Source: an uncultured Rickettsiales bacterium (GTDB lineage Bacteria; Myxococcota_A; UBA796; UBA9615; CAYRNR01). From it: DNA of 64,000 nt. A program made the position numbers and the translations under genes. Shown piece by piece: positions 12,225-29,498 of the stretch; within the stretch, counting starts at the first letter, position 1; each line of letters opens with the position of its first letter. Below the pieces are notes generated by a model that saw only the letters and a list, made by a program, of their open reading frames with translations, was not told the origin of the DNA and did not search any database. The stretch lies in contig CAZDDH010000006.1 of assembly GCA_964504165.1 (NCBI GenBank), positions 4,235-68,234 of the forward strand. Direction: 5' to 3'.

Positions 12225-14702
12225 ATGCGAAGAAGCGCAGATAAAAAAATAAGACTATGTTCGGCCCTCCGTGGAGCGACCTTGTTGCTCCTGGGGGTCT
12301 GCTGGATCGCCGGGAACGCAGCGGCCGCCCAACGTGCGGGTGGCCGGGGCGGCTCCTTGAACCCGACCACACACCTGGATCTCCTCGTCGAGCGGTTGAA
12401 CATCCTCGAGATCCAGTTCAACAACCTGCGGGACTCGGTGCGTGGTGCCCCCCTCAGCCGTTCGCCGGCGGAGGTCAACGACCTGCTCTTCGAGGCGAAC
12501 TTCGCATTCCTCACCGAGGACTACGAGCGCTCCTCGTTGCTGTACTTCTCCTTGCTGGAGAACGGCGACCTGGTCGGCCACGGCGAGGAGGCCGAGGCCC
12601 AGTACTTCCTGGCCGAGAGCCTGTTCCTGGCGCGCAATTTCTATCCGGCCCAGGAGGCCTTCAAGAATATCGTATCCATCGGTCCGACCCATCCGCACTA
12701 CGACGGCGCGGTGATGAAGCTGATCGAGATCTGTGGGTTCACCGGCGACGTGGAGCTCTTCAACTACTACTACAACAACTTCTTACAGACGACGCGGTCC
12801 GGAAGCGGCCCGTCTGCTCTGCGCGTGCGGTACGCGCTGGGGAAGACCCTCTATCGCCAGGGCAAGCTCGACGAAGCCAAGGCGATGTTCAACGAGTTCC
12901 CCAAGGGCAGCACCTACACCTCGCAGGCGCGGTACCACTACGGCGAGATCCTGGTGAAGGAGGGCTACGAGATGGCCCTCGCCGGCAACACCGAGGCGGC
13001 CGAACAGCGCTACCGGGCGGCCATGCCCGTGTTCCAGGACGTCATCCAGCTGCCCATCTCCACGGATGAACAGCTGAAGATCCAGCACCTGGCTTATCTG
13101 GCGCTGGGGGCCCTGAGTTTCGAACTCAAGGATCTGCCCGCGGCCATCGCCGCGTACCAGAATATCCCCAATAGCTCCTCGTTCTTCGCCGACTCCCTGT
13201 TCCAGATCTGCTGGGCCTACATCCAGCTCGGCGACTACGAGGGTGCCCTACGGACCATCGATATCTTCTTGCTGGCCTTCCCGGACGACACGCGGGAGCC
13301 GGAGCTGAAGCTGCTCGCGGCTCACCTGCGGGTCAAGCTCAAGAACTACGAAGACGCGGTGACCGAGTACAAGGCCGTCGTCGCCGAGTACGAGGACATC
13401 AAACAGCGCCTGGACGTGCTGGTGGGGTCGGACGTGGATCCCATGGTGTACTTCAACCAGCTGGTGGACGAGTCCTACATCGTGGACGTGAACTACCAGG
13501 TCCCCGAGTTGGCCGCCCGGATGGCCCGCGAGGATCCCCGCCTGGCCAAGGCGGTGGGCGTGGCATCGGACCTCCAGCGGGAGGCCATGGAGATCGCCGA
13601 GGGGCAGGAGACTGTTGCGACCATCGAGGCCGCCGTCTACGCCGAGGACTCGGGCGACCTGATGACCGCCTACCGGGCCAAGCGCCAGGAGATGGATGGC
13701 CTGGACGCTCAGATCCTGGACATGGAGTCGGATCTGGTCATCGTGGAGGCCAACTACCTCATCGACGCGTTGGGGGGCGAGAACGCCGCCGGCATCCAGC
13801 AGATCGTCGAGCGGCGCCGTCAGCTCAGCAGGGAAGTGGCCTCTGTATCGGCCATGTACAGCGATCGCGCCGAGTACCGGGAGGACGTGGAATCCGCGGC
13901 CAAGGCCGTGGACAACGAGGCCTACAAGCTCGAGACGATGGTGGACGACATCCTCGCGCGCCTGGCGGGCAACGAGATCTATCTCAAGACCCAGCTGGCC
14001 AGCGGGGCGATGACCGACGGGGAGGTCCAGGGCCACAAGCTGGCGATCCAGGCACTCCGCGACGAGTTGCGTGAGCATCAGGAGGAGTTCGACAGCATCC
14101 ATCGCGCCATGGCTACCGGTCGTCTGACGGCGAGCCTGGGGGATGAATCGGACGAGACCGAGCAGGGCAAGCGCAAAGAGGTGCGCGCGCAGATGGCGCA
14201 GCTGGCCGAGGACCTGATCGGCTATCGGTCCGGCGTCACCAAGGGGAACGCCCGCCAGTTCTTCGCCTCCATCGACTCCGGTCGCCAGCGGCTGAGGAAC
14301 ATGCGCAACGACGGGCAGAGCATGCGGGTCGACCTGGAGCGCCGTGAACGGGAAGAGCTGGACCAGATCCGCCAGCTGCTCAGCCAGGAGAAGAGCGCCC
14401 TTTCGTCGTATGCCGTCGATGCTCAGCAGTACCGCACCGATAGCACGGACGTCTCTGGCCACATCGCCGAAGCGAGCTTCCGCGGTGTGCAGCGGGAGTT
14501 CGAGGACACGGTGATGCAGGCGGACATGGGGGCCATCGACGTCTTCTGGATGCAAAAGGAGGAGGTCACCACGCAGCGCGAGAACCTGCGTGACGAGCGC
14601 AACGCCATGCTCAAGGAGCTCAAGCGTATGTACTCGGGGCTCCTCGACTTCGACGAGGAAGAAGAGGACGAAGACGATGACACCTGGGGGGTGATCGAAT
14701 GA
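12225..14702 (+). CDS. Periplasmic TPR-repeat / coiled-coil protein (825 aa), GltD/GltE-like scaffold candidate
   Basis: Signal peptide (RLCSALRGATLLLLGVCWIAGNAAAAQ), multiple TPR-like helical repeats, a long C-terminal coiled coil and an acidic tail (DFDEEEEDEDDD). Stop overlaps the next start (ATGA). Confidence 0.85.
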   Translation: MRRSADKKIRLCSALRGATLLLLGVCWIAGNAAAAQRAGGRGGSLNPTTHLDLLVERLNILEIQFNNLRDSVRGAPLSRSPAEVNDLLFEANFAFLTEDYERSSLLYFSLLENGDLVGHGEEAEAQYFLAESLFLARNFYPAQEAFKNIVSIGPTHPHYDGAVMKLIEICGFTGDVELFNYYYNNFLQTTRSGSGPSALRVRYALGKTLYRQGKLDEAKAMFNEFPKGSTYTSQARYHYGEILVKEGYEMALAGNTEAAEQRYRAAMPVFQDVIQLPISTDEQLKIQHLAYLALGALSFELKDLPAAIAAYQNIPNSSSFFADSLFQICWAYIQLGDYEGALRTIDIFLLAFPDDTREPELKLLAAHLRVKLKNYEDAVTEYKAVVAEYEDIKQRLDVLVGSDVDPMVYFNQLVDESYIVDVNYQVPELAARMAREDPRLAKAVGVASDLQREAMEIAEGQETVATIEAAVYAEDSGDLMTAYRAKRQEMDGLDAQILDMESDLVIVEANYLIDALGGENAAGIQQIVERRRQLSREVASVSAMYSDRAEYREDVESAAKAVDNEAYKLETMVDDILARLAGNEIYLKTQLASGAMTDGEVQGHKLAIQALRDELREHQEEFDSIHRAMATGRLTASLGDESDETEQGKRKEVRAQMAQLAEDLIGYRSGVTKGNARQFFASIDSGRQRLRNMRNDGQSMRVDLERREREELDQIRQLLSQEKSALSSYAVDAQQYRTDSTDVSGHIAEASFRGVQREFEDTVMQADMGAIDVFWMQKEEVTTQRENLRDERNAMLKELKRMYSGLLDFDEEEEDEDDDTWGVIE

Positions 14703-17700
14703 AGACCTTCCTCACGCTGGTCCTATGCCTGTGGATGCCAACGGTCGTGCTCGCTCAAGAGGCCGAAGAGGGCGAAGCCCCACCGCCGGCCGCCGAACCC
14801 GTGTACCAGGGCAGCGATACCGACATGGAGCTGTTCCGGACGGCCTACCTGCGTTATTCGGACCGGATGGAGGAGATCCGGGCGGAAATCAAGCGGGTCG
14901 TCACCCATCGCTACGAAGAAGAGCTGCATAACATCCGGTCCAGCTACGACGTGCAGACCGAGGAGAAGGAAGCCGAAGAGCGTGCCGCGCGCCTGGAGGC
15001 CATCCGGGAGCACGAGAACTTCATCTCCAAGTACCCGGACAGCCCGTACACGGCCCACCGCATGTTCCGGCTGGCGACCTTATACCTCGAAGAAACCGAC
15101 TACCAGATGGCCGTGGACAACGCCGACTACCGGATGCTCGAAGAGCAGTTCGACGCCGGTGAGATCAGCACCCTTCCGGAGCCGCCGGGCAAGAACTACG
15201 CCCGCAGCATCCGTCTGTTCAAGCGCCTGACCGCGGACTTCCCGGACTACAAGTACCTGGACGCCACCTACTACTTCTTGGGCTATTGCTACGCGGATGA
15301 ACTGAGTGAACAGCAGGACGACGAGCTGGCCCGGGCCACGTACCACGAACTGGTGGAGCGGTTGCCCGACAGCCGCTATGCGGCCAACGGCCACTTCATG
15401 CTCGGCGAGATCTACTTCGAGGATCTGCAGTTCGACGAAGCCATCGTGCACTACACCGAGGTGATGAACACGGGCGTCGAGGAACTCTACGACCGCTCCC
15501 TGTACAAACTCGCTTGGGCTTACTACCGCAAGGACGATCTGGACAACGCCATCCCGCGCTTCGTCCAGCTCATCGACTTCAGCGACTCGATGATGGTGGA
15601 AGAGGGCAAGGAGAGTCAGCTCAAGCCCGAGTCCTTGAAGTACCTCGCCATCTCTCTGGTGGAGCAAGCGGACGATGCCAACCGAACGCCGATGGGGCGG
15701 GCGGAGGCCTTCTTCGAGGAGATCGGAGATCGCGAGTACAAGTACGAGGTCCTCACCGGCATCGATGACGTGCTGTGGCAGCAGGGACGCTACGACGAGG
15801 AGTTGATGACCCTGGAGCGGCTCCAGGAACTGTACCCATTCAGCCCGGACAACCCGGATTTCCAGTACAAGATCATGAACCTTCACTACCTCAAGGACGA
15901 TCGGGATCCCGAAGCTGCTGTGCAGGCACGTATCGACCTGGTGGAGCGTTTCAAGGAAGGGACCCCCTGGTGGGAGGCCAACAAGGACAACCCCGATGCC
16001 CTGCGGGCTGCCGCCAAGTACATCGAGGAATCCCTGGGCGACGTCGCCAGGACCTACCACGCCAGCGCGCAGACCAAGTTCACCGAGCCGGGTGAAGAGC
16101 CTGCCAGGTCCGAGTACATCAAGGCCGCGGTGGCCTATCGGGACTACCTGGACCGTTTCCCGTTCGCCAAGGACGCCTACGAGACCCAGTACCAGATCTC
16201 GGACTGCTACTTCTTCGCCGGCGAGTACGAGATGGCCATCGTCGAGTACAAGAAGCTCGACTCCTATCCGGACAAGACCTACCAAGGGGACGTCCTGGAC
16301 TCCCTGGCGTTCGCCTACGAAGTGCTGATGAACAAGAACGAGGGGGACTACAAGGCCAACCCGTCGTCACTGGCGAACATGGAGATCCCGCTGGGGGACA
16401 AGCCCGAGCAGATCCCGGTCATCCCCATCAGCGAAGCGCGGATGAACTTCATCAAGGCGGTGGACGACCTCTACGCCTTCGATCCGACGCACAAGGACAT
16501 CCCTCGTAAGCAGTACATCGTCGCGGAGATCTTCTACTACCACAACCAGATCGACGAGGCCCGCAGGCGGTTCACCGACATCCTCGACAAATACCCCGAG
16601 AAGTCGTTCGCCGCGTACGTGGCCGGCTACATGGTGGACAGCTACCACAAGACCGGGGACGTCAAGAAGGTCCTGGAGCTGTGCGAGCACTACCTGCAGG
16701 TGGAGATGCTGGGTGACGACCCCGAGTACTGGGCCGAGCGCCTGGCCTTCTACAAGGTCAAGCGGCGCAACTCCCAGTTCAAGCTCGCCGAGCTGGCGGG
16801 TGTGACGGACAAGAAGGAGTCGGCGCGACTCTTCGAGGCGTACTACCGGGAGTATCCGGACAACGAGAATGCGGCCATGGCCCTGTTCAACGCGGCGTTG
16901 CAGTACGAGAACGCCGGGAACACCGTCAAATCCCACTCCCTGTACGAGGAGTTCCTCGACGTCTACGGCAAGGACGAACGCGCACCGAGCATCTTCTTCC
17001 GCATCGCCGGGCAGTACGAGCGCACCATGGACCTGGAAAAGGCCATCGACTACTACACTAAGGTCGCCGCGCTGCACCCCAACTACAAGGATCCGGAGAC
17101 GGGCGAGAACTACACCGCCAACGCCTACTACAACGCCGCCTTCCTGAGCCTGGGGCTCAAGAAGTATGACCAGGCCGCCAAGTTCTTCCTCAAGTACGCT
17201 TCCTATCCGGACGTCGAGGATATCCACGAGGCCTACTGGCGCGCTGCCGAGGCGTACAACGACGGGGGCAACTCCAAGAAGGCCCTCAACCAGTACCAGG
17301 AGTACAACCGGCGCTACGGCGACAAAGAGATCAATCGGACGATGGAGTCCCTGATCAAGCAGCACAAGATTTACAAGGAGCAGAACAACTCCCGCATGAT
17401 CGCCAAGATCGAGGAGCAGCTGCTGGAGGCCTACCACAAGGCACGTGAGGCGGGCGTCGAGCTCAACACCGTCAGCGTGGCCGCTGCCTCTGGCTATGCC
17501 TTCCCGACCCTGGAGACCAGCCTTTTCGAGTACGACAAGATCAAGCTGCCCAACACCATGAAGCAGGAGGACCTCGCGCCGGTCCTGGAGGAAAAGAAGG
17601 AGATGGCCAAGGTGATCCAGGAGGAGGCCAGCACGTTCATGGCCACCTACCCGGACTTCGACCACATCATGGCCTGCTTGTACATCAAGGCGTCCGTGAT

Positions 17701-18049
17701 CCAGAAGTACGCCGAGATGATCTACGCCTGGGACCCGCCCTACGACCGCAAAATTTTCGGACCCAAGACCGAGGACTCGATGTTCGAGTTCAACGACATC
17801 GTCGACGAGATGAAGCTCGAGCTGGCCGAGCCCTTCGAGATCGAGGCCGTCAAGTTGTTCGAGATGGTGCTCGCCAAGGCGCGGGAGATGAAGAAGAACT
17901 CCCCGTGGGTCGACAAAGCCCGCGAGGCGCTGCACAAGGTGGACCCGAACACCTACCCGATGCTCAAGCCCATCAAGGTTCACTACGACGATTCCGTCTA
18001 CGAGCCCATGCCGCAGGCCGTGGCCGCGCCGGTGGAGGAGACACATTGA
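14699..18049 (+). CDS. Periplasmic TPR-repeat protein (1116 aa), GltD/AgmU-like scaffold candidate
   Basis: Signal peptide MKTFLTLVLCLWMPTVVLAQ. Dense TPR-like repeats throughout (e.g. YYFLGYCYADEL.., YKLAWAYYRKDDLDNAI..). Translationally coupled to both neighbours. Confidence 0.88.
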   Translation: MKTFLTLVLCLWMPTVVLAQEAEEGEAPPPAAEPVYQGSDTDMELFRTAYLRYSDRMEEIRAEIKRVVTHRYEEELHNIRSSYDVQTEEKEAEERAARLEAIREHENFISKYPDSPYTAHRMFRLATLYLEETDYQMAVDNADYRMLEEQFDAGEISTLPEPPGKNYARSIRLFKRLTADFPDYKYLDATYYFLGYCYADELSEQQDDELARATYHELVERLPDSRYAANGHFMLGEIYFEDLQFDEAIVHYTEVMNTGVEELYDRSLYKLAWAYYRKDDLDNAIPRFVQLIDFSDSMMVEEGKESQLKPESLKYLAISLVEQADDANRTPMGRAEAFFEEIGDREYKYEVLTGIDDVLWQQGRYDEELMTLERLQELYPFSPDNPDFQYKIMNLHYLKDDRDPEAAVQARIDLVERFKEGTPWWEANKDNPDALRAAAKYIEESLGDVARTYHASAQTKFTEPGEEPARSEYIKAAVAYRDYLDRFPFAKDAYETQYQISDCYFFAGEYEMAIVEYKKLDSYPDKTYQGDVLDSLAFAYEVLMNKNEGDYKANPSSLANMEIPLGDKPEQIPVIPISEARMNFIKAVDDLYAFDPTHKDIPRKQYIVAEIFYYHNQIDEARRRFTDILDKYPEKSFAAYVAGYMVDSYHKTGDVKKVLELCEHYLQVEMLGDDPEYWAERLAFYKVKRRNSQFKLAELAGVTDKKESARLFEAYYREYPDNENAAMALFNAALQYENAGNTVKSHSLYEEFLDVYGKDERAPSIFFRIAGQYERTMDLEKAIDYYTKVAALHPNYKDPETGENYTANAYYNAAFLSLGLKKYDQAAKFFLKYASYPDVEDIHEAYWRAAEAYNDGGNSKKALNQYQEYNRRYGDKEINRTMESLIKQHKIYKEQNNSRMIAKIEEQLLEAYHKAREAGVELNTVSVAAASGYAFPTLETSLFEYDKIKLPNTMKQEDLAPVLEEKKEMAKVIQEEASTFMATYPDFDHIMACLYIKASVIQKYAEMIYAWDPPYDRKIFGPKTEDSMFEFNDIVDEMKLELAEPFEIEAVKLFEMVLAKAREMKKNSPWVDKAREALHKVDPNTYPMLKPIKVHYDDSVYEPMPQAVAAPVEETH

Positions 18050-19668
18050 TGCGCCACCACCTACCTGTCCTGGCCGCCATTTTGGTGTGCATGCCGTTCC
18101 TGGGCGGGGTGCAGCAGTGCGGGAGCACTCAGCCGACGAACTCGGGTGATCAGCAGCCCGACGCGGGCGCCACGACCACGGACGCCACACCCACGAGCGA
18201 AGGCGGCACCGCGACCGACGAGGCGGGGGCACCCGCCGAACCGGGAGCCGTTGACCCGGAAACCGGCGAGCCCGTGCCGGCCGCCCCCCCCGCTCCCCCG
18301 GCCGAGACCGCGGAGCAGATCGCCCGGCGTGAGTTCGACGATGGGGTGATGGCGATGAACCTGGTGCCCCCCCAGTTGCCAACTGCCGTCGCGCGTTTCG
18401 AGAGCGTGGTGTCGCGTGTGCCCGACTGGGCCCAGGGCCACTACAACCTGGGCCTCGCCTACATGAAGCAAGGCAACGTGACCAAGGCCATCCCTTCGCT
18501 GGAGAAGGCCACGAGCAAGGATCCCACCATCGGTGAGGCATGGGTTGCGTTGGGTGTGTGCTACGAGCGCCAGGAGCGGCGCGGTGCGGCGTTGGATGCA
18601 TACTCGCAGTGCATCAAAAATGACCCGGAGAACGCCGACTGCCGGCTCGGCTCGGTGCGCATGGACTTTGCTGCCGGCGCCAGCGCGGATGAGATCGTGG
18701 ATCGGATCCGGGACATCCTGCGTATCAACTCCACCTCGGTAGGGGCGTACCTGTTGCTGTCCCAGGCTTACATGAAGCAGGGGGAACCCCAGCTGGCCAA
18801 GTTCGCCCTGGAGAAGGCCCGCCGGGCGAATCCCCTCGCCGAGCAGAATCCGACGCTGCACTGTAATCTGGGCATGATCTACCGCGAACTCGGGCTGGAT
18901 TTCGAGGCCAAACTCGAGTTCGAGAAGGCCATCGAGCTGGACCCCAATCACATCCAAACGCGGGTCAACCTGGCCAACCTCAAGCTCCATGATCTGGATT
19001 TCGAGGGAGCCCGCGATCTGGCTGCGCCCGCGGTCCAGCTGGATCCCAACCACGTAGGCGCCCGGCTGGCACTGGCCGTTGCCAAGCGCGGTACCGGTGA
19101 TCTGCAGGGCGCGGTGACCGATCTGACCTATGTGCTGGAGAACGATCCGGGCAACAAGGATGCGCTGTTCAACCTCGGCGTGCTCTACTCGGACTTTTCT
19201 CGTGAGAACGACAAGGCCGTCCAGACGTACGAAGAGCTGATCCGGATTCTGCCCGAGGGGGAAGACCGGGATCAGGTCCAGAGTTACATCGACGAGGTCC
19301 GCAAATCCCAGGAGCGCGAGCTGCGGGATCGGGAGCGCGAGCAGCGTCGCAAGGAACGTGAGGCGCAGCGTAAGGCTGATGAGGAGGCCCGTGCCGCCGA
19401 AGAGGCCGCCGCCGCCGCTGCCGAAGCTGCTGCGGCCCAGGAGGCCGCCGCCGCTGCCGAAGCTGCTGCGGCCCAGGAGGCCGCCGCCGCCGCCGAGGAA
19501 GCAGCTGCCGCTGCCGCCGAAGCCGCCGCCAACGAGGCAGCGGGTGCCGAGGCTCCTGCTGCCGAGGCTCCTGCTGCGGGGACGCCGCCGGCAGAAGGTG
19601 AAGGGTCGCAACCCGCAGCCGAGGAAGAGACCCCCGCGGAACCAGCCCCGGCGGGCGGGAGCGAGTAG
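18049..19668 (+). CDS. Periplasmic TPR-repeat protein (539 aa) with a C-terminal Arg/Glu coiled coil and an Ala/Glu-rich low-complexity tail
   Basis: Signal peptide MRHHLPVLAAILVCMPFLGG. TPR repeats (HYNLGLAYMKQGNVTKAI.., AWVALGVCYERQERRGAAL..). Tail REREQRRKEREAQRKADEEARAAEEAAAAAAEAAAAQEAAAAAEAAAAQE... ATG at 18049 overlaps the previous stop by 1 nt. Confidence 0.8.
   Translation: MRHHLPVLAAILVCMPFLGGVQQCGSTQPTNSGDQQPDAGATTTDATPTSEGGTATDEAGAPAEPGAVDPETGEPVPAAPPAPPAETAEQIARREFDDGVMAMNLVPPQLPTAVARFESVVSRVPDWAQGHYNLGLAYMKQGNVTKAIPSLEKATSKDPTIGEAWVALGVCYERQERRGAALDAYSQCIKNDPENADCRLGSVRMDFAAGASADEIVDRIRDILRINSTSVGAYLLLSQAYMKQGEPQLAKFALEKARRANPLAEQNPTLHCNLGMIYRELGLDFEAKLEFEKAIELDPNHIQTRVNLANLKLHDLDFEGARDLAAPAVQLDPNHVGARLALAVAKRGTGDLQGAVTDLTYVLENDPGNKDALFNLGVLYSDFSRENDKAVQTYEELIRILPEGEDRDQVQSYIDEVRKSQERELRDREREQRRKEREAQRKADEEARAAEEAAAAAAEAAAAQEAAAAAEAAAAQEAAAAAEEAAAAAAEAAANEAAGAEAPAAEAPAAGTPPAEGEGSQPAAEEETPAEPAPAGGSE
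19414..19485 (+). repeat. In-frame perfect 36-bp tandem duplication encoding an AAEAAAAQEAAA repeat
   Basis: gccgctgccgaagctgctgcggcccaggaggccgcc occurs twice back-to-back (19414-19449 and 19450-19485), inside the CDS 18049..19668. Confidence 0.8.
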
Positions 19669-19705
19669 GAAATGGGATGCCCCGAGGACCTCGTGCGTGG
19701 TCAAG

Positions 19706-19732
19706 AGACCGTCAAACAAGAGACGGTTTGTC
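19706..19732 (+). terminator. Weak hairpin/terminator candidate downstream of the third TPR gene
   Basis: ACCGTC-aaacaaga-GACGGT is a 6-bp stem with an 8-nt loop, followed by TTTGTCG. It lies 40 nt after the stop at 19668. Confidence 0.3.
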
Positions 19733-19819
19733 GAACATGCGCAACTAGTCCGCGGGACAGCACGTTGGATGGGTTATAACCGTCGCGTTTGATGGTTTGG
19801 AAAAGCGCTGTGAGCGTGG

Positions 19820-19848
19820 TTGTGCCAGGTCTGCGAGTTCCCTATAAT
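19820..19848 (+). promoter_or_regulatory. Sigma70-like promoter candidate TTGTGC – 17 nt – TATAAT upstream of the motor sub-operon
   Basis: -35 TTGTGC (19820-19825), 17-nt spacer, consensus -10 TATAAT (19843-19848), about 50 nt upstream of the GTG at 19897. Confidence 0.4.
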
Positions 19849-19896
19849 GGGATGCTCTTGGGCTAGGACCGGAACCGAAAAAGAGGAGCAATATCG

Positions 19897-20154
19897 GTGA
19901 GTTTGGTACGTTTCAGCCGATCGATAATGCTCGGGGCGATCGCGGTCGTCCTGCTGTGCTGTGCCCCCGTGGGCCAGGCACAACAACGTAAAAAAATCGT
20001 CATAGAAGAGGCGGAACAGGTTGAAGGTACGGTTCAGAAGCCCCAGGTGACGTACATTGTCACTCGCCAGGACATCGAGGACCATGAGCAGTTGAAGCTG
20101 GACAAGAGCTTCGTACCCAAGATCGTCGAGTCTGTGGACAAGGAACCTTTCTGA
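19897..20154 (+). CDS. Small secreted or membrane-anchored protein (85 aa), hypothetical
   Basis: GTG start with RBS AAGAGGAG 6 nt upstream. N-terminal hydrophobic segment MLGAIAVVLLCCAPVGQAQ followed by a charged tail. Confidence 0.5.
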   Translation: MSLVRFSRSIMLGAIAVVLLCCAPVGQAQQRKKIVIEEAEQVEGTVQKPQVTYIVTRQDIEDHEQLKLDKSFVPKIVESVDKEPF

Positions 20155-20244
20155 ACGAATTAGAGGATCGAACATTGAGCGGCCGTGGACTACGTGCCGT
20201 TCAGTGAGATACGGATACAAGTTCATTCCAAGGAGGATTTCGGA

Positions 20245-20898
20245 ATGGGAAGCATGGTTGAGTTCTTCAGTAAGGGTGGACCGTTCATGTACGGGATCTT
20301 GGGCGTGTGGGTTATCGCCCTGGCGACCATCATCGAGCGGTTCTACTTCATCTTCTTCAGGTACAACCTAAACGGCGCCGCCTTCATGGCTCAGATCCAG
20401 AAGCTCGTGATGGCGAACAACATCGACCGCGCCATCAAGCTGTGCAACGCAGAGGCGAACGCCGCGTTGAGCCGCGTGCTCAAGGCAGGCCTCACCCGCG
20501 CCAACCGCAGCACGTTGGAGATCCAGAACGCTGTGGACGAGGCCACGCTGGAGGTCATGCCTCTGGTGACCAAGCGCACCCCGATGCTGGGTATGTGGGC
20601 CAACGTCGCCACCCTGACAGGTCTGCTGGGAACCATTTCCGGTCTGATTCAGGCGTTCAAGGCCGTAGGTGCCGCATCCGCCGAACAGAAGCAGGCCCTC
20701 TTGGCTTCCGGTATTTCCATCGCCATGTACACCACGATGTTCGGTCTCATCGTGGCCATCCCGACCATGGTGTTCCACGCCATCATCCAGGGTCGCACGA
20801 CCAAGGTGATCGACGACGTGGACCAGTACTCGGTGAAACTGGTCAACCTGCTCAGTGCTCGTCAGCGTGGTTCGCTGAAGGAGTCTGAAGGTCAGTAG
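20245..20898 (+). CDS. MotA/TolQ/ExbB-family proton-channel protein (AglR/TolQ-like)
   Basis: MGSMVEFFSKGGPFMYGILGVWVIALATIIERFYF... is a typical ExbB N-terminus and first TM, with two more TMs near the C-terminus (ISIAMYTTMFGLIVAIPTMVFHAII). AGGAGGA RBS at 20231-20237. The track's in-frame GTG at 20185 is an alternative start that cannot be excluded. Confidence 0.9.
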   Translation: MGSMVEFFSKGGPFMYGILGVWVIALATIIERFYFIFFRYNLNGAAFMAQIQKLVMANNIDRAIKLCNAEANAALSRVLKAGLTRANRSTLEIQNAVDEATLEVMPLVTKRTPMLGMWANVATLTGLLGTISGLIQAFKAVGAASAEQKQALLASGISIAMYTTMFGLIVAIPTMVFHAIIQGRTTKVIDDVDQYSVKLVNLLSARQRGSLKESEGQ

Positions 20899-20998
20899 AT
20901 CGGTCTGCTGGGCTTGAGCGTGGTGTCCTGAATGGGGCATCACAGTCGGCTAGCGAACGCGGCCCAATGGCCGCCGCCGTAGAAACCTGGAGAGCCAA

Positions 20999-21568
20999 AT
21001 GAGTGCTGCCGCGAATCGTAAAAAAGGCGCCATTCAGCAGAAGGTCGAGCCACCAAATATGGTGCCGATCATGAACCTGATGACGATTCTCATCCCGTTC
21101 ATCCTGCTGTCGGTACAGTTCGTTCACCTCGCGGTGATCGACAGCTCCCTGCCGGCCATTGGAGCGCCCAAGGCCACATCGGAGACCGTGGACGACAAAC
21201 CCCCGCTGATGCTAACGGTGGCCGTCACCGACCGAGGATTCATCGTGGGTGGAAACGCGGCCATTCTCTCTACAGGTGAAGAAGAGGAAGCCGGACAGAT
21301 CACGGATGTTGCCCAGGCCGTCGAGCGCGAGCCGACCATCCCTGTGGATAACGAGGGCAACCATCAATACGAGAAGCTCACCGAGCTGCTCGTCAAGGTG
21401 AAGGCCGAGTATCCGGATGAGCAGAATGTCATCCTGATACCGGAGTCCGAGATCGTCTACGAAGTCATCATTGGGACCATGGACGCCACGCGAGACCACG
21501 AACCCGAGGGAGCCGAAGAGAAAGAAATGCTCTTCCCCTTCGTGGTCATCGCCGGTGGCGCACAGTAG
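20999..21568 (+). CDS. ExbD/TolR-family protein (AglQ/AglS-like), first copy
   Basis: Short cytoplasmic N-terminus and a single TM (MVPIMNLMTILIPFILLSVQFV) with a conserved acidic residue context, then a periplasmic domain. GGAGAG RBS. Confidence 0.82.
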   Translation: MSAAANRKKGAIQQKVEPPNMVPIMNLMTILIPFILLSVQFVHLAVIDSSLPAIGAPKATSETVDDKPPLMLTVAVTDRGFIVGGNAAILSTGEEEEAGQITDVAQAVEREPTIPVDNEGNHQYEKLTELLVKVKAEYPDEQNVILIPESEIVYEVIIGTMDATRDHEPEGAEEKEMLFPFVVIAGGAQ

Positions 21569-21577
21569 GAGCCAGCA

Positions 21578-22090
21578 ATGCCAAGTCCAGCAGAGCTCCG
21601 CGCTAAATCGAAGAGCAGGGCCGGCGAAAAGCAGGAACTGTCCATCACGTCGCTCATGGACATGATGACCATCATCCTGGTTTTCCTCCTGAAGAGCTAC
21701 TCCGTGGAAGATATCCAGGTGAAGCCTTCAGCTGACCTGCGGTTGCCCGCATCCTCCTCCAAAAAGGCACCCGAGGTCGCCGTCAACCTGGTGGTTTCCA
21801 AGCGGACCATTTCAGTAGACGGGGTCAAGGTCATCGATGTCAGTGACATGGCCGTGGCCGAGGAATACAAGCGTGGGACCATGATCACGCCGCTGTACGA
21901 TACGTTGCAGGAGAAGGCAGACGATGCCAAGGCAATCGCTGCTCGCAACGTGAATCAGCCGTTCACGGGACGCATGCTCCTCCAGTGCGATGAGAAGGTA
22001 CCTTTTTCGTTGCTTCGCGAGGTGATGTACACTGCCGGCCAGGCGCAGTTCGGTGAGTTCAAGTTCGTGGTCTACAAGAACAGTGAATAA
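21578..22090 (+). CDS. ExbD/TolR-family protein, second copy
   Basis: ITSLMDMMTIILVFLLKSY is the ExbD-type TM with the conserved Asp (LMDMM). Periplasmic ExbD fold. Confidence 0.82.
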   Translation: MPSPAELRAKSKSRAGEKQELSITSLMDMMTIILVFLLKSYSVEDIQVKPSADLRLPASSSKKAPEVAVNLVVSKRTISVDGVKVIDVSDMAVAEEYKRGTMITPLYDTLQEKADDAKAIAARNVNQPFTGRMLLQCDEKVPFSLLREVMYTAGQAQFGEFKFVVYKNSE

Positions 22091-22228
22091 CTGGGATTAG
22101 GACCTGAGCAGAACTCGTAAACCCTGCTATGATAGAAGGGCGTGCTCTCCGGGACGGGAGCACTGAAGTTCCGGGTCATGAAGGCCCGAAGCTGAATAAG
22201 GAACCGAACAGCACCTGAAGGGACGTCG

Positions 22229-23578
22229 ATGGGCGCCAAGGCTCAACCAAGCCACAAGGTCCTTCGGATCGGCATCATCCAGGGCGGGAAGATTCTCGAA
22301 GAGCGGTTGATCCGTTCAGGCGAGAACGTGACCGTGGGTGAATCCACGAGGAACACGTTCGTTCTTCCCAAATCGTTTCTGCCCAAGCAGTTCAAATTGT
22401 TCGTGGCCAAGGGGCCAGCGTACGCGCTGGCTTTCACGGACAAGATGCAGGGCAAGATCTCCATCAACAACGCGGTGCAGCCACTCAACAAGTTGGCTGG
22501 CAACGTCGCCAAGAAGCGGGGCGACGCCTACTACCTGAGCTTGACTGAGAAGAATCGAGGCAAGGTCCAGATCGGACCGGTCACGATCTTGTTCCAGTTC
22601 GTACAGGCGCCACCTGAACCCAAGAGGGTCGCTGTCAGCTTCAGCCCGTTCAGTGTCGGGCAAGTGGACTGGGTCTATCTGGGGTTCTTCTTCTTCTCGT
22701 GCATCGTCAACGGTGCCGCGTACATCTATGTGGACTCACAGCCGACGCCTGGGAAAGTCAGTATCGAGGACATCCCGGATCGGTTCACCCAGGTCTTCTT
22801 CGATGAAGAGACCGATGTCCAGGTCCCCGAGGAAGAACCCGAAGAGGATGGACTCGGCGAGGCTGAGGAAAAACCCGAGGACACCGGCGAGCCTACTGAC
22901 GCCGGCGGCGAGGCCGATGAGGGAGAGCCCGAAGAGCAAATGTCGGCCGAGGAGATCCGCGACCAGCGCAAGGCCGAACTGATGCAACAGGGGCTCGCTG
23001 CACTCATCGGTACGACAGGCGATACCGCGTCGGGCGATGCTGTGGCAGACCTCCTAGCCGATGGTGGGAGCTTGTCCGGCGACCTGGACGCAGCGCTCGC
23101 ATCCGCGGACGGCATCAAGGTTGCCCGTCGAGGCGAGGACACCACACTACGCGAGGGTGGATCCGGAACCGGCAAGGTCGGGAGTATCACCGACATGAGT
23201 GGTGCCGGGGGCGGAACAGCCGGCAGCGGCGAGAAGGTCCAGAAACAGGTCGAGGCCAAGGTCGGCGGCAACCTGGAGATTACCTTCGGTGACGCGGGCG
23301 ATGTCAGTGCGGTCAAGAAGTACGTGTCGCGCAAGAAGGGCCAGATCAAGGCCTGCTACGAGGAGCAGCTCAAGGGCAACCCCGATCTGCAAGGCAAGGT
23401 GGAAGTGACCTGGACCGTGCTGCCCAGCGGCGGCGTGTCCGGGGTTCACGTGGCCAGCAACAGCACGGGGAACAAGGGCCTGGAAAGCTGCATCATTCGC
23501 CGCATCAACCGTTGGAAGTTCCCCGAAGGGGCCGACGAGTTCGAGATCACCTACCCCTTCAACTTCTTCTCCGGATGA
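22229..23578 (+). CDS. FHA-like N-terminal domain – single TM – acidic/Pro and Gly-rich linker – TonB C-terminal domain protein (GltG/NfsG-like energy transducer candidate)
   Basis: The N-terminus (VLRIGIIQGGKILEERLIRSGENVTVGESTRNTFVL...GKISINNAV) resembles an FHA fold. TM is WVYLGFFFFSCIVNGAAYIYV. Then an acidic linker (PEEEPEEDGLGEAEEKPEDTGEPTDAGGEADEGEPEE) and a Gly/Ser-rich stretch. The C-terminus KACYEEQLKGNPDLQGKVEVTWTVLPSGGVSGVHVASNSTGNKGLESCIIRRINRWKFP matches the TonB-C pattern. Confidence 0.78.
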   Translation: MGAKAQPSHKVLRIGIIQGGKILEERLIRSGENVTVGESTRNTFVLPKSFLPKQFKLFVAKGPAYALAFTDKMQGKISINNAVQPLNKLAGNVAKKRGDAYYLSLTEKNRGKVQIGPVTILFQFVQAPPEPKRVAVSFSPFSVGQVDWVYLGFFFFSCIVNGAAYIYVDSQPTPGKVSIEDIPDRFTQVFFDEETDVQVPEEEPEEDGLGEAEEKPEDTGEPTDAGGEADEGEPEEQMSAEEIRDQRKAELMQQGLAALIGTTGDTASGDAVADLLADGGSLSGDLDAALASADGIKVARRGEDTTLREGGSGTGKVGSITDMSGAGGGTAGSGEKVQKQVEAKVGGNLEITFGDAGDVSAVKKYVSRKKGQIKACYEEQLKGNPDLQGKVEVTWTVLPSGGVSGVHVASNSTGNKGLESCIIRRINRWKFPEGADEFEITYPFNFFSG

Positions 23579-23755
23579 GTCGCTACTTTTTTTGACCGCC
23601 TGACGACTCAAATTTTTTCACAAAGTGTTATCCGCGCAGCGAATGAGCGGTTATATCAACTGCCAATTCAGGTTCAATCGATCGTGCGGGGCAGTTGACA
23701 CGATGGCTCTCCAGCCGTACGCTGAGAGTTCCGTCGGGGTTGCGGAGGATTCTTG

Positions 23756-24313
23756 ATGAGAGTTAACGGAACAGGCCATTGGCCCGGAAGATTCCTGGGC
23801 ATCATGCTGCTCGCAGCTTGTTTGGTAGCTCCAATTGCCCAAGCAGCCGAGGGCGATCCAGCGGATACCGCCAACATGACGCCGCGGCAGCAACTCGATT
23901 TTGCTGAAGAGGCGGTCTCCGACGTCAAGGGCGGGGCCAGGCACGTATTGAAGATGGTGGAGCAGGCACAGAAGAACAAAGACGTGCTGCTGCTCAATTG
24001 CCTCAATGAAAAATTGGCTGGGCTGAAGGCTCTGTTGAAGGTTGTTGAGGACGCGGACATGGCCATGCAAGAGGCGATGGCACGCGAGAACAACGATCTA
24101 GCAAATCACGAATTCCAAAAAGTCACCATGGCCCAGCAGCAGGCATCTCAGCTGGTCGTGGAAGCAGAGGCTTGCGTTCCGGAGGTCGGTGTTTCGTACG
24201 CCGGGCACGGCCGCTGGTCAGTGGATATGCCTGAAGAGCAAGATGATGCGGATGACTACCTCTCGGATCCCAGTGGTTTCGAACGGGCTCCTGAGAAGTC
24301 GCCCTTCAATTGA
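23756..24313 (+). CDS. Secreted α-helical hypothetical protein (185 aa)
   Basis: GGAGGA RBS 6 nt before the ATG at 23756. Signal peptide FLGIMLLAACLVAPIAQAAEG. A TTG at 23753 is an alternative start. Confidence 0.6.
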   Translation: MRVNGTGHWPGRFLGIMLLAACLVAPIAQAAEGDPADTANMTPRQQLDFAEEAVSDVKGGARHVLKMVEQAQKNKDVLLLNCLNEKLAGLKALLKVVEDADMAMQEAMARENNDLANHEFQKVTMAQQQASQLVVEAEACVPEVGVSYAGHGRWSVDMPEEQDDADDYLSDPSGFERAPEKSPFN

Positions 24314-24505
24314 GGGTTGAAGAGGGACGTTCCATCGGATAAAAATCATTCATCAACGCGGTGCTGAGGATGTGCGATGTGGGGCCGCGTGCGGGGATTT
24401 CAACGACAGCCGGATAAGACAGGAAGTCAAAATCGATCGGGATTGAAGAGGGACCCTCTGGGTTTCACACGGACAGGAAGATCTGTAGTAGTGTCTGACG
24501 TTGGA

Positions 24506-25834
24506 ATGAGCAGTATGAAGAAACGACTGTTGAGATTGGCTGGGCTGTGCGTGGGGGTGTCCTTGTGGATGTACCCCACCGTGTCTGCGGATGCTGCTGA
24601 AGATGATGAGGGGATTCGCGCTGGAGCCAGCGGGCGTTTTCAGCCCGGGATCGAGATTGGTGCAAGCTACGATAGTAATGTCTACCGGTCTGAATCCAAT
24701 GGCGAGGGAGACCTCGTTCTTCGCGTGGAACCGCACCTCCGCTACATCCTGCGTTCCGAGAACGCGGATTTCGAGGTGTACGGCGAATACCATCTGAAGC
24801 AGTACACCGGGGTCGCCGTAGACCACCAGAATGACTCCGTCGGGCACAAGGACCTGAACGTCTATGCCAACTACCTGGCTGGGCTCGATCTGGTCACGAG
24901 GCCCAAGGGGCAGTTCTCGTTCCTGTTCGGTGACAAATTGAGCAGGCTCTCCCGTGAGTTCGATAACGTCGATCTGCCCCAGTTCCGCTACTCCTTGATG
25001 GACAGCCTCAATAACAAAGCTCACATCGGAGTAGAGGGCCGGCCAGGGACCTCCTTGCGTATTCGGGGTACGTTCAACATCGATCTGGCGCGATACACCG
25101 GGGCCAACGCCCAGGGGTTCGGCGAGAGTTCAGATCGCCGGCTGTACGGCCAGGCCTTCGATTTCTACGGCAACATCGAAGTTGGCTGGAAATTCTTCCC
25201 CAAGACACAGGCGATGTTGATTGCCGACTTCGGCCACATCATGTGGGAACCGGATCTTCAGGATTCTTTCACCGTTGCCGGCTGCGATGAGTCTCTGTGT
25301 TCCATGAACCAGTACGACTCCGACCACTGGCGGGTTTGGCTGGGGGTCCAGGGCAAGATCAGCCGCAAGCTGGCTCTGCAGGGCCTGTTCGGGTACGGCA
25401 ACGCCTACTTTCCAAACAGCTCGGAAGGTGTCGGGGGAAATCTGCGCGGCGCGGACGGTATCCTGGGTAAGGTTCAGTTGCACTGGAATCCGGCCCTCAC
25501 TCAGAAGATCACAATCGGCTTCCTGCGCGACTACCGGTTTCTGTATTTCTCCAACTACTACATCACGACGTCGCCCTACGTGAGATACCGCGGGCAGATC
25601 GCCGGATTCATCCTGCCGACAGCCGAGTTCAAGTACCTCTACCGGACCATCGCCGGCGACGTGGACCGTACGGACCACGAGATCAAGGCCCGTGCGGGTG
25701 TGGACTTCCAGATCCGAGACTTCTTCTCCGTGGGCGTGGACTACACTTACTGGTCCATCGTCGCTTCCTCGGACGGCAGTGAACCGACCTTCTCGGACCA
25801 CATGATCGGCCTGACCATCGAACTCGGCTACTGA
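24506..25834 (+). CDS. Outer-membrane β-barrel protein, hypothetical (GltA/B/H- or NfsA/B-like candidate)
   Basis: Signal peptide MSSMKKRLLRLAGLCVGVSLWMYPTVSADA. Alternating amphipathic β-strands with aromatic girdle residues and a C-terminal ...IGLTIELGY strand. ATG at 24506; ATG at 24515 is an alternative start. Confidence 0.7.
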   Translation: MSSMKKRLLRLAGLCVGVSLWMYPTVSADAAEDDEGIRAGASGRFQPGIEIGASYDSNVYRSESNGEGDLVLRVEPHLRYILRSENADFEVYGEYHLKQYTGVAVDHQNDSVGHKDLNVYANYLAGLDLVTRPKGQFSFLFGDKLSRLSREFDNVDLPQFRYSLMDSLNNKAHIGVEGRPGTSLRIRGTFNIDLARYTGANAQGFGESSDRRLYGQAFDFYGNIEVGWKFFPKTQAMLIADFGHIMWEPDLQDSFTVAGCDESLCSMNQYDSDHWRVWLGVQGKISRKLALQGLFGYGNAYFPNSSEGVGGNLRGADGILGKVQLHWNPALTQKITIGFLRDYRFLYFSNYYITTSPYVRYRGQIAGFILPTAEFKYLYRTIAGDVDRTDHEIKARAGVDFQIRDFFSVGVDYTYWSIVASSDGSEPTFSDHMIGLTIELGY

Positions 25835-28816: not shown

Positions 28817-28835
28817 GACGGACAAGGGAGCGACG

Positions 28836-29495
28836 ATGAGGCTGGTTACGACGGGTGTGATCTCGATGATGCTCTTACTGGGAATGGTGAGTGTGGCGTC
28901 GGGGGAGAAGGGATCGGGACTGGATCAGGTGCTCCATGGTGTGAACGAGCACTATGCGAACGTGACGGCGATCCAGTGTTCGTTCGAGCAGGAGAACCAG
29001 TACCTGGGTGGCGAGAACTTCGTCCAGAAGGGGACGCTGTTGATCCAGCGCCCTGCCAAGATGAAGTGGGACTATACCAGCCCGTCCCTGCGCCAGTTCA
29101 TCAGCGACGGCGAGAGCCTGTGGGTCTACCACCCGGACGAGAAACGGGCCTTCGTGATGAACGACCTGGATTCGGGGGACCAGGCGCGGATGTTCGGCTT
29201 CATCTTGGGCCTGGAGGACGTGCGCAGCCAGTTCACGGTCACCCTGCTGCCCGAGCCGGGAGAGGGCGGACGGATCCGGCTGCAGCTCGTCCCCAAGGAG
29301 GCGATGGCCGGTGTGGACAAGATCTGGGTCGAGGTGGAGCCGGAGAAGCACGCCATCGTGTCGGTGACGTTCGATGATGGCATGGGCAACCTGACCGTGA
29401 CCCGTCTCACCGATGTACAGACCAACCCGGAGATTCCCACCGGTGAGTTCACCTTCGAGGCCCCTGACGGGGTTGAGATCCTTCCCTACAACTAG
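28836..29495 (+). CDS. lolA: Outer-membrane lipoprotein carrier LolA
   Basis: Signal peptide and LolA fold motifs (..QCSFEQENQYLGGENFVQKGTLLIQRPAKMKWDYTSP..). Conserved ftsK–lolA adjacency. RBS AAGGGAG. Confidence 0.85.
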   Translation: MRLVTTGVISMMLLLGMVSVASGEKGSGLDQVLHGVNEHYANVTAIQCSFEQENQYLGGENFVQKGTLLIQRPAKMKWDYTSPSLRQFISDGESLWVYHPDEKRAFVMNDLDSGDQARMFGFILGLEDVRSQFTVTLLPEPGEGGRIRLQLVPKEAMAGVDKIWVEVEPEKHAIVSVTFDDGMGNLTVTRLTDVQTNPEIPTGEFTFEAPDGVEILPYN

Positions 29496-29498
29496 CCC

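Follow-up and report, generated by a model that had tools for sequence, protein, structure and literature searches.

Does the protein encoded at 22229..23578 (+) represent a TonB motor under the control of Ser/Thr-kinase signalling, or does it belong to another kind of envelope machine? The window, i.e. the whole stretch of 64,000 nucleotides that was analysed, comes from an uncultured Rickettsiales bacterium assigned to the Myxococcota_A in GTDB. An earlier note, made from the sequence alone, had described the protein as a TonB-C protein with an FHA-like cytoplasmic domain in front of its single transmembrane (TM) helix, and had proposed that this domain reads phosphothreonine signals. The protein is made up of the following parts:

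22229..23578, + strand: GltG-like, TonB-like transducer, short form (PglI/AgmX-tail family), 449 aa (ORF, profiles, homologs, AF2 full-length model)
22256..22603, + strand: cytoplasmic pseudo-FHA beta-sandwich, aa 10-125 (AF2, Foldseek, GltG profile, hhalign)
22670..22738, + strand: single TM helix, aa 148-170, N-in C-out (AF2 helix, hydrophobicity, charge asymmetry, column conservation)
22739..23248, + strand: disordered periplasmic linker, aa 171-340 (AF2 pLDDT, composition)
23249..23575, + strand: TonB-C-like AgmX/PglI domain, aa 341-449 (NF033768, TIGR01352, Foldseek)

The reading frame starts with ATG and is preceded by a Shine-Dalgarno-like GAAGGGA 6-12 nt upstream. In a set of 5.8 billion proteins we found 480 homologs at E<=1e-3, the majority of them full length, and relatives are present in 348 species-level genomes. 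Together with the wide occurrence of the N-domain this places the ORF far beyond chance. M1 and the entire N-domain are conserved among the homologs, so the true start does not lie 3' of the FHA-like region; an internal start just 5' of the TM helix is ruled out by this conservation and by the Shine-Dalgarno-like motif at the ATG. The strings given in the earlier note are all present in the protein, VTVGESTRNTFVL at aa 34-46, GKISINNAV at aa 75-83 and the acidic run EEPEEDGLGEAEEKPEDTGEPTDAGGEADEGEPEE at aa 202-236, and the roughly 150 residues it had placed before the membrane amount to about 147 aa preceding one hydrophobic helix. Several database sources label homologs as 'TonB family protein'; looking up the cluster of the exact protein gave no source names.

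For the N-domain, AF2 predicts an 11-strand beta-sandwich spanning aa 10-125 with pLDDT above 90, directly followed by an invariant LFQFVxAPPEP motif. In a Foldseek comparison with the PDB, FHA domains made up nearly all of the best ~28 matches (probability about 1.0, TM about 0.6 on the target), with E-values of 1.5e-3 to 1e-2 and no match at E<=1e-3, so that the FHA similarity is weak by E-value. Alignment of the N-domain profile to an FHA consensus with hhalign gave 82% probability and E 1e-5, the consensus having been typed by hand with the retrieval of 48 distinct solved FHA sequences as its sole validation. The alignment to a single real FHA domain, GarA (sequence 100% identical to PDB 2kfu_A), was not significant (E 0.27) and showed the same register as the consensus alignment. 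A HMMER profile of the N-domain retrieved no solved FHA from all PDB sequences and only two chance-level matches. Pfam FHA (PF00498) left the window protein unmatched even at E<=10 and touched 1 of 32 homolog N-domains (E 0.004), and PF16697 was touched by 3 of the 32 (E 1.5e-3). The FHA fold that had been suspected is therefore borne out by the predicted sandwich, the Foldseek matches and the consensus alignment.

The positions that contact phosphothreonine in canonical FHA domains were read in the register of the two hhalign alignments (GarA and FHA consensus) across 61 aligned homologs. R81, S95, H98 and N117 of GarA (M. tuberculosis, PDB 2kfu) correspond to E38, P52, F55 and a variable residue in the window protein. 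At the position of the GR Arg we found Glu in 45 homologs, Asp in 6 and Ala in 6, and Arg in none. The Ser of SxxH is replaced by Pro in 58 of the 61 and is present in none, the His position is occupied by F34/H16/Y11, and the Asn (NG) position is variable with no Asn conserved. Compared with a canonical FHA such as GarA, the domain has the 11-strand beta-sandwich, the conserved Gly ending strand 3 and the sequence register in common, but it is not matched by Pfam FHA. Judged from its sequence, it is an FHA-fold domain without the phosphothreonine pocket, a pseudo-FHA. The cytoplasmic domain of the type III secretion proteins YscD/PscD/PrgH (Pfam Yop-YscD_cpl, PF16697) likewise has an FHA fold lacking the phosphothreonine-binding residues and is, like the N-domain here, located directly before a single TM helix, where both would act as structural docking modules. 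Degenerate secretion-system FHA domains (4a0e, 4d9v, 6uid) were also among the Foldseek matches. However, no family-level sequence relationship to YscD/PscD/PrgH is detectable, and their periplasmic parts and partner machines are entirely unlike those of the window protein.

The remaining parts of the protein agree well with the earlier description. The net charge of +13 in the N-domain versus -29 in the linker fits an N-in topology of the TM helix, which contains S157-x3-N161; position 161 is A33/N17/H10 across the family, and the TM His of the SHLS motif (S-x3-H-x6-L-x3-S) is not conserved among the homologs. The linker (aa 171-340) consists of 25% Asp+Glu, 22% Gly+Ser and 5% Pro. Its acidic EP/E-rich run at aa 201-240 is followed by a stretch rich in Gly/Ala/Ser that contains short conserved motifs (conserved residues L256, T262, G264, D274, A289 and G313), and pLDDT is below 50 across most of aa 190-337. 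At the C-terminus, where pLDDT is above 90 for aa 360-449, the TonB-type assignment is supported by the AgmX/PglI tail model NF033768 (95.2 to 98.9 bits, cutoff 40) and TIGR01352 tonB_Cterm (29.4-32.6 bits, cutoff 27.1), with Pfam TonB_C staying below its cutoff (21.1 under 24.6). Foldseek matches of the C-domain comprise the C-terminal domains of TonB, FusB and H. pylori TonB (TM 0.5-0.68), among them the TonB-FhuA and TonB-BtuB complexes. Cys is present at C376 and C421 in 59 of 61 homologs, which supports a periplasmic location; the C-domain is a disulfide-containing, AgmX/PglI TonB-C-like domain.

The architecture had been presented as unusual for a TonB, but it is already known as that of GltG (PglI), the TonB-like protein that couples a proton-driven motor to the cell envelope in the Agl-Glt gliding machinery of myxobacteria. 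NF033760 GltG matches the window protein at E 4e-44 (151.2 bits) in one stretch covering profile positions 206-645 of 650. The N-domain alone (aa 14-139) falls on positions 206-332 (E 1.2e-11) and the C-domain alone on 555-645 (E 1.3e-22). M. xanthus GltG has two FHA domains, one N-terminal and one central in front of the TM helix, as well as a TonB-C domain, and its membrane-proximal FHA-like domain has already been described (PMC11761067). By profile alignment, the N-domain of the window protein corresponds to this 'central FHA'. Profile positions 1-205, which hold the canonical N-terminal FHA, are unmatched in the window protein, in line with the missing Pfam FHA match, and because this FHA is absent the protein represents a short form: residues 1-114 of M. 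xanthus GltG (MXAN_4867; canonical FHA, Pfam FHA at 26-90) and the disordered segment next to them have no counterpart, and the length is 449 aa versus 640 aa. Common to both proteins are an FHA-like domain that immediately precedes the one TM helix, the long disordered periplasmic linker, the AgmX/PglI TonB-C-like tail and the genetic association with gltD/E/F-like and aglR/Q/S-like genes (PMC3169522, PMC11761067). The linker is acidic and Gly-rich here, whereas the TonB-like motif of GltG was called proline-rich in the 2011 paper (PMC3169522). The motor genes, which form a separate aglRQS locus in M. xanthus, are located directly upstream in the same cluster, whose members besides the transducer are:

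12225..14702, + strand: GltC-like TPR protein, 825 aa (NF033756 E 6.4e-21, 74.7 bits, below cutoff; syntenic in 42/80 loci)
14699..18049, + strand: GltD-like large TPR protein, 1116 aa (size, position, TPR content; syntenic in 46/80)
18049..19668, + strand: GltE-like periplasmic TPR protein (NF033758 E 8e-27, 94 bits, below cutoff; TPR families)
19897..20154, + strand: GltF/CglF-like small secreted protein, 85 aa (NF033764 CglF E 1.5e-4, below cutoff; syntenic in 56/80)
20185..20898, + strand: AglR-like MotA/TolQ/ExbB proton-channel subunit (PF01618 87 bits; TolQ and ExbB matches; syntenic in 55/80)
20999..21568, + strand: ExbD/TolR-like subunit 1 (PF02472)
21578..22090, + strand: ExbD/TolR-like subunit 2 (PF02472)
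23753..24313, + strand: conserved candidate for a secreted protein or lipoprotein, 186 aa, LAAC lipobox-like (no significant family; syntenic in 61/80)
24377..25834, + strand: conserved candidate beta-barrel of the outer membrane, up to 485 aa (PF10082 BBP2_2 29 bits, cutoff 23.7; syntenic in 61/80)

All genes of this cluster are encoded on one strand in the order gltC, gltD, gltE, gltF, aglR, exbD, exbD, gltG, lipoprotein, beta-barrel, and of 80 loci from MAGs of Myxococcota most show the same order. The transducer does lie beside motor genes, with an ExbB/MotA-type gene and two ExbD genes directly upstream on the same strand; only 138 nt separate it from the second ExbD gene, which ends at 22090. 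The two ExbD/TolR-like subunits differ at the protonatable TM Asp: subunit 1 has Asn in its place (Asn in 55 of 58 orthologs) and subunit 2 keeps it (Asp in 60 of 63). TolQ is the best NCBIfam match of the AglR-like channel protein. The GltD-like protein contains five YbgF/CpoB-type TPR stretches (133 bits, cutoff 90.1) and had no GltD model match in the profile search. For the GltE-like gene the longest ORF begins at 17905, and the probable start Met at 18049 precedes a signal-peptide-like stretch. The 485-aa beta-barrel candidate may serve the machine as a partner in the outer membrane.

About half of the 80 loci have ftsK-lolA-rimO after the cluster. A scan for promoters and terminators yielded fewer sites than shuffled sequence did and hints only weakly at unit boundaries near 11340 and 25984. 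With GarA and Ki67 as seeds, phmmer searches through 1.3 Mb of sequence, comprising the 80 related loci and the window, found no canonical FHA; the neighbourhood of these clusters therefore does not encode a stand-alone FHA partner. A scan of the larger ORFs of the window detected none of the gliding-specific genes gltA/B/H/K, cglB, gltI/J, aglZ and mglA. The scores stay far from the equivalog cutoffs (GltG 151 vs 650, GltE 94 vs 225, GltC 75 vs 450), and the Glt-like proteins are therefore distant relatives and not orthologs of the proven gliding proteins.

Luciano et al. (2011) defined an Agl-Glt 'core complex' (Group B) of gltC, gltD, gltE, gltG, aglR, aglQ and aglS that is clustered in one region (PMC3169522), and the same seven gene types form one co-directional block in the window. 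Such a one-block layout with extra gene(s) is found in beta- and gammaproteobacteria and Fibrobacter, which are carriers outside the Myxococcales and Bdellovibrionales, and in Geobacter (PMC3169522). Different from the core complex, the cluster includes a gltF/cglF-like gene, typical of Myxococcales and Bdellovibrionales, and a conserved pair of lipoprotein and 485-aa beta-barrel that matches no Glt family. Taken as a whole, we regard 22229..23578 as probably encoding a protein of the GltG (PglI) family in short form, the TonB/TolA-like force transducer of an Agl-Glt-type, envelope-spanning machine.

Three other explanations have to be weighed against this one. If the N-domain were a functional phosphothreonine-binding FHA, a Ser/Thr kinase could control the ExbB/ExbD-type motor, as the earlier note had proposed. 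The kinase it pointed to exists:

37466..41182, 13.9 kb downstream of 22229..23578: Ser/Thr kinase, Pkinase + AAA_16, STAND-type, 1238 aa

Ser/Thr kinases are abundant in myxobacteria, the fold of the N-domain is of the FHA type, and one of the homolog N-domains is touched by Pfam FHA, as mentioned above. However, the Arg, Ser and Asn phosphate contacts are replaced in 61 of 61 homologs, 51 of which have an acidic residue at the Arg position, and the window protein itself has no Pfam FHA match. Moreover, ftsK, lolA and rimO as well as two minus-strand genes, encoding a 770-aa surface protein and a histidine kinase, are located between the cluster and the STAND kinase. The conserved neighbourhood stops at ftsK-lolA-rimO, no kinase homolog is present in the 10-kb flanks of the syntenic loci, and the 80 loci yielded a single kinase-homolog match, encoded on the opposite strand of a paralog locus. 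In view of the intervening genes and the synteny, a link of the STAND kinase to the cluster was rejected. The proposed kinase input does not hold against these data, and control of the motor through this domain appears extremely unlikely.

The protein could also be an ordinary, if divergent, TonB, which together with ExbB/ExbD would supply energy to TonB-dependent receptors of the outer membrane in nutrient uptake. The TIGR01352 score above cutoff, the Foldseek matches to TonB C-terminal domains including the FhuA and BtuB complexes, the adjacent ExbB and ExbD genes and the database name 'TonB family protein' speak for this. It shares with TonB and TolA of E. coli, which work with ExbB/ExbD or TolQ/TolR, a single passage through the inner membrane, coupling to a proton channel of the MotA/ExbB/TolQ type, an extended spacer in the periplasm and, at the C-terminus, a small alpha/beta domain of TonB-C fold. 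In contrast to them it has a large folded cytoplasmic domain of ~147 aa instead of the short N-tail of TonB, no Pro-rich rod (5% Pro in the linker) and no conserved SHLS His; genes for a TonB-dependent receptor or TolB-Pal partners are absent from the cluster, and the stator plug is heterodimeric (Asn/Asp), one of the two different ExbD paralogs lacking the Asp. The 485-aa barrel matches BBP2_2 and not a TonB-dependent receptor plug or barrel, the GltG and AgmX/PglI tail models score best, and GltC/E/F-like genes accompany the gene, which makes a role as ordinary TonB very unlikely. Somewhat less improbable, although still unlikely, is a role of the cluster similar to that of Tol-Pal, in envelope integrity or in cell division, where the window protein would be an analogue of TolA and would not belong to any machinery for surface transport or gliding. 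TolQ as the top NCBIfam match of the channel protein, the YbgF/CpoB-type TPR stretches of the GltD-like protein and ftsK-lolA-rimO next to the cluster in about half of the loci would fit such a system, and AglR5QS-GltG has been likened to TolQ5R2-TolA (PMC11761067). Nevertheless, no TolB or Pal homolog was found among the cluster ORFs scanned, there are two distinct TolR-like genes and not one, the matches to GltC, GltE, GltG and CglF are specific though sub-threshold, and in M. xanthus a bona fide Tol-Pal system exists separately (PMC3169522).

How a GltG-type transducer of this kind might work can be pictured by analogy to M. xanthus, where AglR and GltG interact in a two-hybrid assay (PMC3169522) and an AlphaFold complex model predicts that the central FHA and TM helix of GltG bind AglR5QS (PMC11761067). 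The TM helix and the pseudo-FHA would clamp onto the AglR-like pentamer at its membrane face and at its cytoplasmic face; that the FHA-like domain docks on the stator is an AlphaFold prediction made for another species. Being clamped onto the pentamer in this way, the FHA fold would serve as a constitutive protein-protein docking module and not as a phosphopeptide reader. In the stator, formed by an AglR pentamer and an ExbD heterodimer, proton flow would be converted into conformational work, which would be transmitted via the linker, where conserved motifs may bind the GltD/GltE-like TPR proteins. The work would finally arrive at the TonB-C-like domain, which would engage periplasmic and outer-membrane parts of the machine. 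What the machine drives may be gliding, Nfs-like transport of polymers or some other function in the envelope.

When the N-domain alone was used as query it retrieved 1816 representatives (50% clustering), and nearly all of the best 150 of these carry the domain N-terminally in proteins of ~450 aa. This dominance of the short form among the best 150 matches suggests that the family has its conserved core in the membrane-proximal pseudo-FHA rather than in the canonical N-terminal FHA of M. xanthus. The latter is predicted to bind GltI, and GltI was dated to the ancestor of the Myxococcales by the 2011 study (PMC3169522). As a tentative idea, which we consider possible but doubtful, the short form and its cluster could represent an ancestral minimal Agl-Glt-type machine with a non-gliding output, to which the canonical FHA was added later for GltI scaffolding. 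Such a machine would comprise the pseudo-FHA/TonB-C transducer, the AglR-like channel, the Asn/Asp TolR-like plug, the GltC/D/E/F-like proteins and the family-less lipoprotein and barrel. The pseudo-FHA would then be the original stator-docking module, and the output could be, for example, transport at the outer membrane or of surface polymers by way of the new barrel.

The idea of a kinase-gated TonB motor thus gives way to a documented coupling protein of the GltG type, whose FHA fold would have been repurposed for phosphate-independent docking next to the membrane. For most specialists this will be a confirmation and extension of what is known about the GltG family, with little surprise. 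The membrane-proximal pseudo-FHA would be the part to target in studies of how force is handed over from MotA/TolQ-type stators to TonB-like transducers, and the compact single cluster with its Asn/Asp TolR-like pair could serve as a simpler structural model of Agl-Glt machines.

The open reading frame at 22229 to 23578 (+), described in the earlier note as encoding a TonB-C protein with an FHA-like input domain, does encode 449 aa, and all sequence strings quoted there were found in the protein. A Shine-Dalgarno-like GAAGGGA lies upstream of its ATG. The gene is strongly conserved: at E ≤1e-3 we found 480 homologs, almost all of them close to 450 aa in length and aligning end to end, and 348 species-level genomes contain relatives. 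A downstream start was excluded because M1 and the N-terminal domain are conserved. The N-terminal region is basic (net charge +13) and is followed by a single hydrophobic helix at aa 148–170, a 170-aa linker of net charge -29 (25% Asp+Glu, 22% Gly+Ser, just 5% Pro) and a C-terminal domain. The full-length AlphaFold2 model reproduces the transmembrane helix at aa 148–170 and a confident alpha/beta C-terminal domain, with the linker disordered (pLDDT <50 across most of aa 190–337); short conserved motifs are present in the linker at about aa 250–320. The charge asymmetry and two C-terminal-domain cysteines, kept in 59 of 61 homologs, indicate an N-in/C-out topology. Within the helix, S157-x3-N161 (22697–22711) is similar to the first part of the S-x3-H motif of TonB/TolA. 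Because both positions vary across the family (157: Ser 27, Phe 24; 161: Ala 33, Asn 17, His 10), this motif is clade-specific at best.

Among NCBIfam models, the protein matched NF033760 (adventurous gliding motility protein GltG) with E 4e-44 and 151 bits, aa 14–446 aligning in one stretch to profile positions 206–645 of 650. Searched alone, the N-terminal domain aligned to positions 206–332 (E 1.2e-11), and the C-terminal domain matched the AgmX/PglI tail model NF033768 (98.9 bits, cutoff 40) and TIGR01352 tonB_Cterm (32.6 bits, cutoff 27.1). Judged from these alignments, the protein corresponds to GltG minus its first ~205 residues, a short form in which exactly the membrane-proximal FHA-like domain is retained; in comparison with Myxococcus xanthus GltG, described as a three-domain protein (PMC11761067), the canonical N-terminal FHA is absent. 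All Glt-family scores are well under the equivalog cutoffs, so the protein is only remotely related within the family and not orthologous to the gliding protein; it is best regarded as belonging to the GltG/AgmX-PglI-tail family in a broad sense. A profile search with the N-terminal domain gave 1816 representatives at 50% clustering, and nearly all of the 150 best-scoring matches listed carry it at the N-terminus of a ~450-aa protein, which makes the short form dominant at least among the closest relatives. Three GltG-like matches of ~925 aa (P0121–P0123) carry three FHA-like copies, arranged as two tandem copies, an extra multi-TM block, the third copy, a final TM helix and the AgmX/PglI tail.

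The gene is part of a block from 12225 to 25834 located wholly on the plus strand, with the following neighbors:

upstream of the gene, + strand: GltC-like TPR protein (E 6e-21)
upstream of the gene, + strand: GltD-sized TPR protein of 1116 aa with YbgF-type repeats and no GltD match
upstream of the gene, + strand: GltE-like TPR protein (E 8e-27)
between the GltE-like and channel genes, + strand: CglF/GltF-like protein of 85 aa (E 1.5e-4)
20185–20898, 20999–21568 and 21578–22090, directly before the gene, + strand: MotA/TolQ-like (MotA/ExbB-family) channel, then two ExbD/TolR-like genes (ExbD1, ExbD2)
23753–24313, + strand: lipoprotein-like ORF of 186 aa (p186) with lipobox-like LAAC, no Glt family model match
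24377–25834, + strand: beta-barrel ORF of at most 485 aa (BBP2_2, 29 bits), no Glt family model match

By gene content this cluster is the 'core complex' (Group B) described by Luciano et al. in 2011, in which gltC, D, E and G and aglR, Q and S share one region with an extra gene (PMC3169522), plus gltF. An ORF of 238 aa without family match (11476–12192) lies just upstream of gltC, in the same place in 10 related loci, and is preceded by a sigma-70-like site (11340–11369); the unit may begin with this gene. Further upstream, a complete RND efflux set (TolC-like outer-membrane factor, membrane-fusion protein and RND permease, 3527–9806) is unrelated to the cluster.

We searched 80 related loci by tblastn with the cluster proteins. 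Their sources are MAGs of uncultured Myxococcota/'Deltaproteobacteria', in part under implausible placeholder names; the record titles of many contigs with the Myxococcota-type cluster read 'uncultured Rickettsiales', 'Enterobacterales' or 'Cognaticolwellia', apparently placeholders or wrongly assigned MAG taxonomy. The same gene order was found in most loci. GltG was present in all 80, ExbD2 in 63, ExbD1 in 58, GltF in 56, AglR in 55, GltE in 47, GltD in 46 and GltC in 42, counts lowered by the many loci that end at contig ends. The p186 and beta-barrel ORFs, each present in 61 loci, follow gltG in 61 of the 80 and are candidate outer-membrane partners of the machine. ftsK, lolA and rimO (26093–30851 in the window) usually lie 3' of the cluster (49, 41 and 39 of 80 loci), an unusually stable neighborhood for a putative motility or transport cluster. 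In six loci (L069, L071, L073, L078, L079, L080) gltG directly follows gltF without intervening aglR/exbD. This is the G1-type order of M. xanthus, and Myxococcota thus have both arrangements. A second full-length GltG-like paralog of 42–49% identity is found in MAGs that also contain the syntenic cluster (L007, L009, L010, L011, L013, L014, L033), in an unrelated context without motor or Glt-like neighbors; the one at L009:9944–11359 precedes four ORFs (1179, 851, 558 and 558 aa) that have essentially no family matches.

Regarding the ExbD pair, ExbD1 carries Asn26 at the position of the protonatable transmembrane Asp (Asn in 55 of 58 orthologs), whereas ExbD2 keeps Asp28 (Asp in 60 of 63). 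This difference suggests that the stator plug is an obligate heterodimer with a single proton-carrying subunit.

The N-terminal domain was modeled with AlphaFold2 from a 32-sequence alignment of aa 1–150 as an 11-strand beta-sandwich (pLDDT >90 at aa 10–125). The top ~28 Foldseek matches in the PDB were almost exclusively FHA domains (1uht, Rv0020c, Rv1747, Ki67, MDC1, GarA/OdhI and CT664), with probability ~1.0 and target TM ~0.6, but E only 1.5e-3 to 1e-2 and identity 10–17%. The full-length model matched TonB C-terminal domains (H. pylori TonB, FusB, E. coli TonB-FhuA and -BtuB) and also the degenerate FHA of the T3SS protein YscD. At the sequence level the FHA relationship is faint: Pfam FHA did not match the protein and scored E 0.004 in 1 of 32 homologs, Yop-YscD_cpl touched 3 of 32, a HMMER profile of the domain found no solved FHA, and the hhalign comparison with one real FHA, that of GarA (sequence confirmed to be identical to PDB 2kfu), was not significant. 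Against an FHA consensus that retrieves 48 solved FHA sequences, hhalign gave 82% probability and E 1e-5. Model, Foldseek and consensus alignment together bear out the FHA-like fold as a remote FHA-type fold.

Both hhalign alignments have the same register through strands 3–5, which fits the predicted strand boundaries. In this register the invariant G37 is the Gly of the FHA 'GR' motif, E38 occupies the phosphate-binding Arg position, and P52 and F55 take the Ser and His positions of 'SxxH'. Among 61 homologs the Arg position is Glu in 45, Asp in 6, Ala in 6 and never Arg, the Ser position is Pro in 58 and never Ser, and the His position is Phe, His or Tyr; neither of two candidate positions for the 'NG' Asn is conserved. 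The acidic residue at the Arg position argues against phosphopeptide binding. With the pocket residues of canonical FHA domains absent, a canonical FHA was ruled out, and the domain would not be a phosphothreonine reader. Its invariant residues (K10, R13, E25, Y65, G75-K76, R110-G111-K112) and the equally invariant LFQFVxAPPEP motif at its end point to a different conserved interface. The closest functional analogy is the docking module of T3SS YscD/PscD, where a degenerate FHA likewise directly precedes a TM helix.

A Ser/Thr-kinase input, as had been proposed, is not supported, because the phosphothreonine pocket is missing and kinase synteny is absent in 10-kb flanks. The 1238-aa Pkinase + AAA_16 protein (STAND kinase, 37466–41182) lies 13.9 kb downstream, separated by ftsK, lolA, rimO, a 770-aa surface protein and a histidine kinase (both on the minus strand) and two unassigned ORFs. 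Only 1 of the 80 loci has a kinase homolog, which is encoded next to a paralog and on the other strand (the 10-kb flanks fall short of 14 kb).

The mode of action of the protein would be that of GltG, TolA and TonB. Three features nevertheless distinguish it from a canonical TonB, which it is not: the cytoplasmic domain is large, a Pro-rich rod is lacking, and the SHLS His is not conserved. Its domain combination is already published for GltG, and the cluster type is published as well. The most serious rival is a Tol-Pal-like role of the cluster, supported by the YbgF-type TPRs, the TolQ-like best match of the channel and the ftsK-lolA neighborhood; tolB and pal, however, are absent among the cluster ORFs scanned, and the specific Glt-family matches also weaken this reading.

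In M. xanthus, AlphaFold predicts binding of the central FHA and TMH of GltG to three AglR monomers of the AglR5QS stator (PMC11761067), and the AglR-GltG interaction was demonstrated by two-hybrid assay (PMC3169522). In its section 'The periplasmic complex', PMC11761067 gives PDB 7zc8 as the match of the central FHA and 3gqs as that of TonB-C; the two IDs appear swapped, because Foldseek describes 3gqs as the CT664 FHA domain and 7zc8 as the FusB TonB-like C-terminal domain. By analogy with M. xanthus, the TMH and pseudo-FHA would dock on the AglR-like pentamer, proton flow would be turned into conformational work, and this work would pass via the linker to the TonB-C-like domain and from there to TPR and outer-membrane components; in the 2025 model GltD and GltE are bound by the GltG middle region (PMC11761067). 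The protein is linked in conserved fashion to a MotA/TolQ-type channel, two TolR-like partners and GltC/D/E/F-like periplasmic proteins, and possible outputs of this machine are gliding, polymer transport as in Nfs, and an envelope function of the Tol type.
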